Virus record (IMG/VR): IMGVR_UViG_2526164634_000028 | Direction: 5' to 3' (one strand) | Source: a virus | Taxonomy: Duplodnaviria; Heunggongvirae; Uroviricota; Caudoviricetes | Length of the DNA: 41,531 nt | In this document: positions 6,001-9,000 of the stretch, piece by piece | Position numbering within the stretch: position 1 is the stretch's first letter | How the letters are laid out: every line of letters starts with the position of its first letter | Position numbers: made by a program

Positions 6001-9000
6001 TGGGAAAATGCTCCTGCAAACAGCGCCACTGTGGCGGTAAAAATCAATGTCTGATCTGTTTACGCGAATGTGTTGCCGGATGGACGGGGCGACCGTTCGG
6101 GTGATGGGCAAACAGGCGGAGATTAACGGCGTCGTGTATGACGTGATGCCGGAGGAAGAGTCCGCGGAGATGGGGGCGCTTTCGGGCAGCCAGTTGTCAC
6201 TGGTGGTGTTTTCAGCCCGGTACCGTCCGGCCCGTCATGATGTTGTTGTGTTTGCGGGGCGCACACTGACGGTGACCCGTTATGACACGTACAACGGTAA
6301 ACCCCGGATTTTTGTCGAACAGGAATGAGTATGGCAATAAAAGGTCTGGCGCAGGCCATGAAAAATCTGGATGCAATTGACCGCCGTGCCGTTCCCCGGG
6401 CTGCCGCCACGACACTTAACCGTGTGGCGGAGTCCATCATCGCGAAAACGGCCTCTTCGGTTGCCAGGGAGCTGGCGGTTCCGCGCCGTCTCATCCGTGA
6501 GCGTATCCGCCTGCAACGGGCTAGCGCAGACAGGATTTATGCGAAGGTCATCATCAACACCGGTAATCTGCCCGCCATAAAACTGGGGACGGCCAGCGTG
6601 CGGCTTTCCCGCAGAAAGCGACGAAAGAAAGGCGAGCGTTCGGTCAAGAAAGGGGGCGGCAGTGTGCTGATTGTGGGGAAAAGACGGATCCCGGACGCCT
6701 TTATCACCCGGCTGGCTAACGGACGCTGGCATGTGATGCAGCGTATGCCGTGGGCACCATCGTCCACCGGTGCTGACAGCAAAGGGAGGCCGAAACGCTA
6801 CCGTCTGCCGATTGAAGTGGTGAAAATTCCGACTGCCGGACCGCTGGCAGAAACTTTTGAACGTGAACGGGACCGGATGTACCGGGAAAAATTACCGGCG
6901 CAGATGATGAAAGCCATGACGCATCAGTTACGCCTGGTGCTGAAAAGAAAATGACAGGGAGGGTGTATGAAACACCGTGAAATACGGACGGCAGTTCTGT
7001 CTGCCCTGAAAGACAATATTTCTGAGCGGGTGAGCTGGTTTGACGGCCGCCCGGTTTTTATTGATGAACAGGAACTGCCTGCTGTTGCTGTTTACCTGAC
7101 TGATGCGTCTGCTGCTGACGAGTTCGTTGATGAGGGGACCTGGGAGGCGACACTGCATATTGAAGTTTTTCTCAGGGCAAAAGAACCGGACTCGGCACTG
7201 GATATGTGGATGGAAGAGAAAATCCTTCCTGCGCTGGAGGCGGTTCCCGGCCTCAGTGCGTTACTGCTGAAGATGAATCTTCAGGGGTATGACTACCGCC
7301 GGGATGATGAGTTTATGATGTGGGGATCGGCAGATCTCCTGTGGAAAATTACCTACGAGATGTGAGGACGATATGGCAATACCAAATCCTCTTGAGCCGG
7401 TGAAAGGTTCCGGCACCACACTATGGGTGTACACCGGCAAGGATGATGCTTATGCCAACCCGTTGTCAGATGATGACTGGCAGCGACTGGCTAAGGTGAA
7501 GGATCTGACGCCGGGCGAGATGACGGCAGAATCCTACGATGATAACTACCTGGATGATGAAGACGCGGACTGGAGCGCGACCGGGCAGGGACAGAAATCT
7601 GCAGGTGATACCAGTTTTACACTGGCCTGGAAACCGGGAGAGGAAGGCCAGAAAGGGCTTATAGGCTGGTTTGAAAGCGGCGATGTCCGGGCCTATAAAA
7701 TCCGTTTTCCGAATGGCACGGTGGATGTGTTTCGTGGCTGGGTCAGCAGTATCGGTAAGGCCGTGACGGCGAAAGAAGTGATCACCCGCACGGTGAAAGT
7801 CACTAACGTGGGTAAACCTTCTGTAGCGGAAGAACGCAGCAAAATTACGCCGGTCACTGCGATTAAGGTAACGCCGACAGGTACGGTTGAAAAAGGGAAA
7901 ACAACCACCCTGACCGTTACTGTGGAACCGGAAAATGCAACGGATAAGACATTCAGGGCGATTTCCGCCGATCCATCAAAAGCCACCATTAGCGTGAAAG
8001 ATATGACGATTACTGTGACGGGGGTTAAGGATGGAAAAGTCAGCATCCCTGTGATTTCCGGTAATGGTCAGTTTGCTGCGGTGGCTGAAATTACCGTTAA
8101 TAATGTGCCGGGTGGCTAAAGAGCTGAGAGATAAGCGATGTTCCTGAAAACAGAACAATTTGAATATAACGGTGTATCCGTCACGCTTTCTGAGCTGTCT
8201 GCGCTGCAGCGTATTGAGCATCTTGCCCTCCTGAAACGGCGGGCAGAAGAGGCTGAAGCCAGCGGCAACCTGCAGGTGAGTGTGGAAGATCTTGTCAGAA
8301 CCGGCGCGTTTCTGGTGGCGATGTCCCTGTGGCATAACCATCCACAGAAAACGCAGTCACCGTCAATGAATGAGGCCGTGATGAAGATAGAGCAGGAAGT
8401 GCTCACCACCTGGCCTGCCGATGCCATTGCCCGGGCGGAAGACGTGGTGTTGTGCCTGTCCGGGATGATCGAAGCTGTTCGTCCGGATACTGATATTACT
8501 GAAGTGGCGAAAAATAACACGCTGACTGATGATGATTTTTCTGCGGGAAAGTCTTCGACGGTGAGCTGAACTTTGCCCTCAGACTGGCGCGTGAGATGGG
8601 GAGACCCGACTGGCGCGTGAGATGGGGAGACCCGACTGGCGCGCCATGCTTGCCGGGATGACATCCACCGAATATGCCGACTGGCACCGTTTTTACCGCA
8701 CGCATTATTTTCAGGATACCCAGCTGGATATGCATTTTTCCGGGCTGACGTACGCTGTACTCAGCCTGTTTTTTTGCGATCCGGATATGCATCCCTCTGA
8801 TTTCAGTCTGCTGGCACCCCGACGTGATGATGAGCAGACGGAGATGCCGGATGAGGACGATATGCTGATGCGGAAAGCGGCAGGTCTTTCTGGTGGTGTC
8901 CGCTTTGGGGCTGACGGGAAGGAAATCGTTATGGTCAGTGATGACATGCGGAGCAGTACAGAGGATGAAGCCATGCTGATGATGGTGTCTGAGGGAATTC

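Follow-up and report, generated by a model that had tools for sequence, protein, structure and literature searches.

Organization of the G-T cassette

The stretch of DNA analyzed here, in the following called the window, comprises 41,531 nucleotides of a tailed-phage genome (IMG/VR record IMGVR_UViG_2526164634_000028) and represents the first 41.5 kb of the draft contig AIHD01000038.1. It carries genes of a lambda-like prophage, among them the tail assembly chaperone cassette G/G-T, in which a -1 ribosomal frameshift near the end of gene G gives access to the T segment. We describe a 26-bp tandem duplication that separates the slippery site from the T domain in this cassette. The genes and signals that define the locus are the following:

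7373..8119, + strand: major tail (tube) protein gene, gpV homologue, intact; 248-amino-acid (aa) open reading frame (ORF) with the Pfam domains Phage_TTP_12 and Big_2
8138..8569, + strand: gene G, tail assembly chaperone, intact; 143 aa, Pfam PF06894 Phage_TAC_2 (E 7e-51)
8545..8551, + strand: slippery heptamer GGGAAAG for the -1 frameshift, intact and in phase, near the 3' end of gene G
8622..9026, + strand: stranded T ORF, 134 aa from the first ATG; Pfam PF06223 at residues 14-92 (E 8e-14)
9016..11622, + strand: tape measure gene, gpH homologue, intact; 868 aa, Pfam TMP_2 and Tape_meas_lam_C

The overlapping ORFs of G and T sit between V and H, resulting in the gene order V-G-T-H of a lambda-type cassette, and both parts of the pair show the corresponding homology, with PF06894 in G and PF06223 in T. 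Gene G terminates at the TGA codon 8567-8569. Within the G frame the heptamer is read as X XXY YYZ (GCG GGA AAG), and the identical sequence in the identical phase is present in lambda at 10109-10115. The upstream gpV homologue is of equal length in 55989 and FDAARGOS_1059. The T frame is open from 8595 and contains the whole Phage_tail_T domain within the T ORF, in a frame that is now +1 relative to G. Continuity of the -1 frame into T is missing, unless one copy of a 26-bp sequence is deleted in silico. The G/G-T cassette is a disrupted member of the lambda type whose T part is a pseudogene; it represents neither another family nor a variant mechanism.

A 26-bp tandem duplication downstream of the slippery site

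The sequence between the heptamer and the T domain contains two full copies of a 26-bp unit and the beginning of a third:

8582..8607, + strand: copy 1 of the 26-bp unit, GACTGGCGCGTGAGATGGGGAGACCC, identical to copy 2
8608..8633, + strand: copy 2 of the 26-bp unit, GACTGGCGCGTGAGATGGGGAGACCC, extra in comparison to lambda and all relatives; which of the two copies is called the extra one is arbitrary
8634..8643, + strand: 10-bp direct repeat GACTGGCGCG, partial third copy, equal to the first 10 bases of the unit at 8582-8591

Tandem Repeats Finder reports this region as a perfect array from 8582 to 8643 (period 26, 2.4 copies, 100% matches, score 124), which begins 31 bases past the heptamer GGGAAAG. 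The resulting 36-base exact self-match at a single offset is far above chance expectation. When the lambda genome (NC_001416, 9600-10700) was aligned with the window, a single clean 26-base gap appeared in lambda at the duplication. The 26-bp array is one of only two tandem arrays detected in the 41.5-kb window. The other is a 45-bp tandem repeat at 19094-19184 (2 copies, 82% identical) in the tail-fibre ORF 18143-19462, whose reading frame it preserves, 45 being a multiple of 3.

The duplication truncates the frameshift product

Simulation of a -1 slip at the heptamer yielded the following reading frame:

8551..8661, + strand: -1 frame after the slip, with 22 authentic T-segment codons followed by 14 aberrant codons and the stop codon TGA at 8659-8661

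The simulated product consists of G residues 1-138, the authentic T residues VFDGELNFALRLAREMGRPDWR and the 14 aberrant residues VRWGDPTGAPCLPG, adding up to 174 aa compared to 287 aa for the restored fusion. The -1 frame thereby offers 36 sense codons after the slip, or 38 if counted from the start of the heptamer. A Pfam search of the 174-aa product as it stands did not find Phage_tail_T (PF06223); the G/TAC domain alone is kept. Removal of one 26-mer in silico generated the 287-aa G-T fusion with PF06223 at residues 167-245, so that the Phage_tail_T domain of the restored protein falls entirely beyond the duplication. In a global alignment of 294 columns, 205 residues of this restored fusion are identical to those of lambda gpGT (279 aa), corresponding to 70% identity.

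Other ways of reaching T were considered as well. The +1 frame relative to G contains TGA stops at 8562-8564 and 8592-8594. Because of these two stops and the G stop at 8567-8569, no single shift by -1, -2 or +1 joins G to T. Slipping by -2 or +1 at the heptamer was ruled out as a route to T, as the ribosome would meet the TGA at 8562-8564 and the T frame is closed again at 8592-8594. A second -1 slip was likewise rejected, as inspection of the post-slip frame by eye revealed no X XXY YYZ motif between 8595 and 8658.

An earlier note on this DNA, prepared from the sequence alone, had described an intact heptamer at 8545-8551 and an exact 26-bp tandem copy between it and the gpT-homologous frame, and had proposed an alignment to the lambda G-T region as a check. 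Our data agree with this description: the heptamer matches lambda in sequence and phase, 8582-8607 equals 8608-8633, and the gap in lambda lies exactly there. The note had further placed the stop of the -1 frame at 8659-8661 after about 38 codons and had claimed that the T domain is out of reach of a single -1 slip. The figure of 38 is reproduced when counting from the start of the heptamer, and the 174-aa product devoid of PF06223 bears out the second claim.

Direct repeats and a hairpin at the site of the duplication

In the ancestral, single-copy T segment, the 10-mer GACTGGCGCG is present twice as a direct repeat with a spacing of exactly 26 bp. Lambda has its short repeat, ACTGGCG, at positions 10147 and 10173 and thus at the same distance of 26 bp. 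Folding of the single-copy unit as DNA predicted a hairpin of -13.4 kcal/mol (z -3.8), and none of 200 shuffled sequences was as stable. The base of this hairpin is formed by pairing of the two 10-mers (GGCGCG with CGCGCC), while the spacer contributes a small inner stem.

Slipped-strand misalignment classically takes place between short direct repeats that a hairpin holds close to each other. The duplication has the hallmarks of such an event, with exact head-to-tail copies bounded by direct repeats of the unduplicated allele as seen in the relatives and in lambda. In this scenario, the nascent strand would have slipped from the second 10-bp repeat back onto the first during replication, and 26 bases would have been copied again. 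One re-copying of the repeat-to-repeat unit results in exactly the structure seen. We infer the slipped-strand origin from its product.

The hairpin is also a conserved feature of the T segment in its own right, found at 8585-8646 and at related loci and centred on the palindrome GGCGCGCC. As a stimulator of frameshifting it was discarded: it starts 34 nt past the heptamer, too distant for a classical stimulator of -1 programmed ribosomal frameshifting. A location of the duplication at a recombination (mosaic) breakpoint was rejected too, the nearest one relative to FDAARGOS_1059 being at about 11307 and hence 2.7 kb off.

The duplicated allele is private to one draft assembly

For database searches, the duplicated allele was represented by a 39-mer spanning the junction between the two copies. 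Single-copy alleles share at most 26 contiguous bases with this query and cannot seed a match. A 401-nt megablast of the region, by comparison, does not separate one-copy from two-copy alleles, as BLAST joins two overlapping pieces. The junction 39-mer did not match any of 5,426 complete E. coli genomes, while a single-copy control 39-mer of the same length and composition matched 2,705 places in 1,566 complete E. coli genomes. A degenerate version of the junction pattern had no match in IMG/VR, where the corresponding control pattern matches at least 120 contigs, and none in the GTDB species representatives or in the JGI metagenomes.

Among 122 related copies of the locus, none carries even a degenerate form of the duplication, there being 17-19 differences between the unit and the 26 bases that precede it. 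The heptamer lies exactly 37 nt upstream of the repeat unit in the window and in all 122 related copies. The reciprocal allele, in which 26 bp would be deleted, was searched for with a query composed of 26-nt halves and had no match in the complete E. coli genomes. As neither duplication nor deletion alleles were found elsewhere, the site is neither a recurrent slippage hotspot nor a phase-variable locus. Judging from these searches, the duplication is a single private event, limited to one draft assembly. A private allele of this kind points to a very recent mutation or else to an artefact.

The prophage carries a terminase gene interrupted by an insertion sequence

Of all recorded contigs, only AIHD01000038.1 (719,915 bp) of the draft assembly GCA_000250275.2 encodes an identical tape measure protein. 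The coordinates of the window coincide with those of this record, as seen from the identity over 3016-17622. At its left end, the window contains the remains of a second lesion:

1..339, - strand: terminal part of an IS66-family insertion sequence (IS; ISEc22-like), with 1 mismatch to the element annotated in FDAARGOS_1059
340..1960, + strand: terminase large-subunit gene, C-terminal roughly three quarters; the N-terminal ~500 nt are absent from the contig

The IS66-type end, ...GACGACGCTTAC at 328-339, directly abuts the interrupted terminase gene. The intact terminase gene of 55989 measures 2124 nt, and its match to the window starts at about 340, approximately 500 nt into the gene. Over positions 1-420 the window differs from FDAARGOS_1059 by 1 mismatch; in that genome, IS66-family transposase genes (tnpA/tnpB/transposase) are located between two terminase fragments, and the equivalent stretch is annotated as 'terminase gpA endonuclease subunit, incomplete, missing N-terminus'. 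The junction between IS and terminase is therefore common to the window and FDAARGOS_1059. In addition, the match to the window begins at base 1 for each of FDAARGOS_1059, 602687 and O111:H2 12A, which places the IS end in all of them, and all three carry a single-copy G-T with 100% identity.

After removal of one 26-mer, positions 1-11306 of the window differ from the FDAARGOS_1059 prophage by 2 mismatches (at 201 and 1388) and no other indel, amounting to 99.98% identity. In length, the remaining head and tail ORFs agree with their counterparts in 55989 or FDAARGOS_1059. This applies to portal, protease-capsid fusion, Z-like, U, V, G and H, and equally to M, L, K, I, J, Lom and the tail fibre.

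Relative to FDAARGOS_1059, a sharp mosaic breakpoint is located at about 11307 inside the tape measure gene, with 57 mismatches in 11307-12784 compared to 2 in 1-11306. Beyond K/I/J the similarity to this genome is patchy.

The window thus shows two lesions, a split terminase and a broken G-T. The most economical history is that the shared IS insertion came first and the private duplication later. With its terminase split by the IS, the prophage would already have been unable to package DNA, and the duplication would have accumulated later under relaxed selection. As the terminase was already split by the IS66-family insertion, the tail defect is not what makes the prophage defective.

Predicted consequences for tail assembly

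Lambda needs both gpG and gpGT, at a ratio of about 30:1, and neither is part of the finished tail (PMC5009743, PMC3296357). The G part binds the tape measure protein gpH, and the T part recruits the tail-tube protein gpV (PMC5009743, PMC3296357). The -1 frameshift occurs at a low level in vivo, at ~3-4% (PMC3296357, PMC5009743). In the mutant gpT::BamHI of the siphovirus TP901-1 the slippery site is destroyed, leaving gpG but no T extension (PMC4493119). This mutant produced DNA-filled capsids without tails, without detectable tube protein and with zero infectivity, a defect that was rescued in vitro by purified tails (PMC4493119).

Transferred to the duplicated allele, gpG should still be made normally. 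Roughly 3-4% of the ribosomes would slip by -1 at GGGAAAG, read 22 correct and 14 wrong codons and terminate, releasing the 174-aa product. The T domain would be left in the +1 frame, with two stop codons ahead of it. Without the G-T link, gpV would presumably not be recruited to the gpH-gpG complex, and no tail tube would be polymerized. The claim of the earlier note that G-T is required for lambda tail assembly is in line with the literature, which states that gpG and gpGT are both needed (PMC5009743, PMC3296357). We infer that the prophage's own genes cannot build tails; 'probably tail-defective', as the note had put it, is a sound deduction from the analysis rather than a demonstration. 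The phenotype might be less strict: occasional collapse of the tandem repeat to one copy could soften it, and repair of G-T by recombination with another lambdoid copy is conceivable.

A contrasting scenario, in which the allele remains functional at least conditionally, appears very improbable to us. Here, T would either be made as a separate protein or the duplication would act as a reversible off-switch, whose collapse to one copy by slippage brings gpGT back in part of the population. Separate synthesis could start at ATG 8622, or by termination-reinitiation at an ATGA sequence in which the T-frame ATG at 8658-8660 overlaps the -1 stop TGA at 8659-8661. The persistence of a complete T domain in an intact 134-aa ORF and the presence of the ATGA stop/start overlap at 8658-8661 would be compatible with this idea, and exact tandem repeats are inherently prone to deletion to one copy, as generally known from slipped-strand mutagenesis. 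However, no recognisable Shine-Dalgarno sequence lies at a usable distance before ATG 8622 or ATG 8658, and the mechanism as described needs G and T in one polypeptide that bridges gpH and gpV (PMC5009743). As to a switch, neither the duplication nor the 26-bp deletion is found in about 2,700 complete-genome copies, which argues against recurrent switching, and the split terminase gene leaves a regulated tail switch little to act on.

A recent mutation or an assembly artefact

We consider it probable that the window records a recent loss-of-function mutation, present in one strain only, in the G-T of an already defective lambda-like prophage that carries effector genes. That the duplication as such is a real mutation can be stated with similar or slightly greater confidence. 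Overall, this would be ordinary prophage decay, with a type of lesion and a context that are already well known.

Several points weigh against this interpretation. The sequence is the start of a draft whole-genome shotgun contig (GCA_000250275.2, AIHD01000038.1). All 4 indels in comparison to JB2, which is 99.9% identical over 18.3 kb, are 1-nt homopolymer contractions, suggesting some sequencing error. That the terminase N-terminus lies on the far side of the IS in this strain is deduced from the three relatives; the contig itself starts inside the IS. Finally, it is conceivable that gpGT supplied in trans by another lambdoid prophage of the same cell substitutes for the missing fusion. E. 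coli genomes with this G-T type contain a median of 2 copies and up to 7.

The first two of these points, together with the fact that the allele was found nowhere else in the databases searched, would fit an assembly or sequencing artefact. In this case the true allele would have a single copy, and the second copy would stem from a wrong-register overlap at the 10-bp repeat, from contig joining or from slippage during library preparation or PCR. We regard such an origin as rather unlikely. An exact 26-bp duplication differs in type from a homopolymer error. The duplication keeps the register of the natural 10-bp repeats at the hairpin base, as slippage in the cell would readily explain; with an unmerged contig overlap, such agreement could arise only by chance. 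Apart from the duplication, the surrounding 11.3 kb contain no indels and 2 mismatches relative to the complete genome of FDAARGOS_1059, so that the local quality looks high. Moreover, every type of read in use at the time exceeds the 62-bp array in length, and assemblers should have handled it without difficulty.

Effector cargo and a satellite-like island

Downstream of the tail genes, between the tail-fibre genes and potB, the window carries type III secretion system (T3SS) effector cargo at about 19800-23800. Two of its genes are:

20445-21503, - strand: EspW
21582-22232, - strand: DUF1076/NleG-family protein (given as an example)

About 770 bases around 22436-23206 are unaligned with JB2. 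Further downstream, an island at about 29000-39500 between roxA and phoQ shows the gene set of a phage satellite resembling the phage-inducible chromosomal islands (PICI-like). In addition to an integrase, an Icd-like protein and PerC, it encodes:

33005-34405: primase/helicase
36356-37411: major head protein
37424-37759: head decoration protein
38391-38933: small terminase subunit

The tyrosine integrase of the island is split into the ORFs 29014-29664 and 29703-30263 by a 1-nt contraction of an A-run at 29649 (A5 here compared to A6 in JB2, where the integrase gene is an intact 1230 nt). This split reflects a genuine frameshift or else an error in sequencing the homopolymer. Further 1-nt contractions relative to JB2 are found at 30940 (A4 to A3), 32233 (G9 to G8) and 39423 (A6 to A5). 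All four contractions are located inside the satellite-like island, in a pattern typical of homopolymer errors in draft assemblies.

The island lies ~10 kb away from the prophage. If such satellites depend on borrowed tails, the other tail genes might be retained as a tail donor for the island, with the duplication as a reversible off-state and collapse of the repeat restoring tails in some cells. Of the scenarios discussed, we give this one the least credence.

Implications for prophage annotation

The G-T cassette and its frameshift are textbook knowledge, and small frameshifting lesions are common in cryptic lambdoid prophages of pathogenic E. coli. As the duplication alters neither the G ORF nor the T ORF, gene callers report G and T as two intact genes, and standard annotation is blind to the inactivation. 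It is revealed only by checking the continuity of the -1 frame across the slip site. Predictors of intact prophages that count structural genes would likewise overrate this element. The locus also offers a clean natural example of a putative slipped-strand duplication between direct repeats that flank a hairpin, and a 99.98%-identical relative still has the ancestral allele.

Comparison with known systems

Defective lambdoid prophages of enteropathogenic and enterohaemorrhagic E. coli (EPEC/EHEC), such as the Sp prophages of O157:H7 Sakai, carry T3SS effectors and accumulate IS insertions and frameshifts. The prophage in the window resembles them in its effector cargo next to the tail-fibre genes (EspW, NleG/DUF1076), in the IS within a morphogenesis gene and in its small frameshifting lesion. 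Unlike in these prophages, the lesion is a 26-bp duplication in T that was not found in any other genome searched.

With the G/G-T system of lambda (Levin, Hendrix & Casjens 1993; Xu, Hendrix & Duda 2004, 2013, 2014, cited via PMC5009743), the cassette shares the V-G-T-H order, the heptamer, its phase, the Pfam domains and the 26-bp spacing of the short repeats. In contrast to lambda, the -1 frame ends after 36 codons through the extra 26 bp, and no gpGT is predicted. The short repeat also differs, being 7 bp long in lambda (ACTGGCG) and a perfect 10-mer here.

The TP901-1 mutant gpT::BamHI is the engineered equivalent of the state predicted for the window, in which gpG is made and the T extension is absent. 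Unlike in this mutant of a Lactococcus phage, from which the slip site was removed, slipping should still occur here and lead to the truncated 174-aa product.

Finally, the allele fits what is known of slipped-strand duplication between short direct repeats. It contains one extra unit, it is located at hairpin-flanking repeats, and in this respect it shows nothing unusual.

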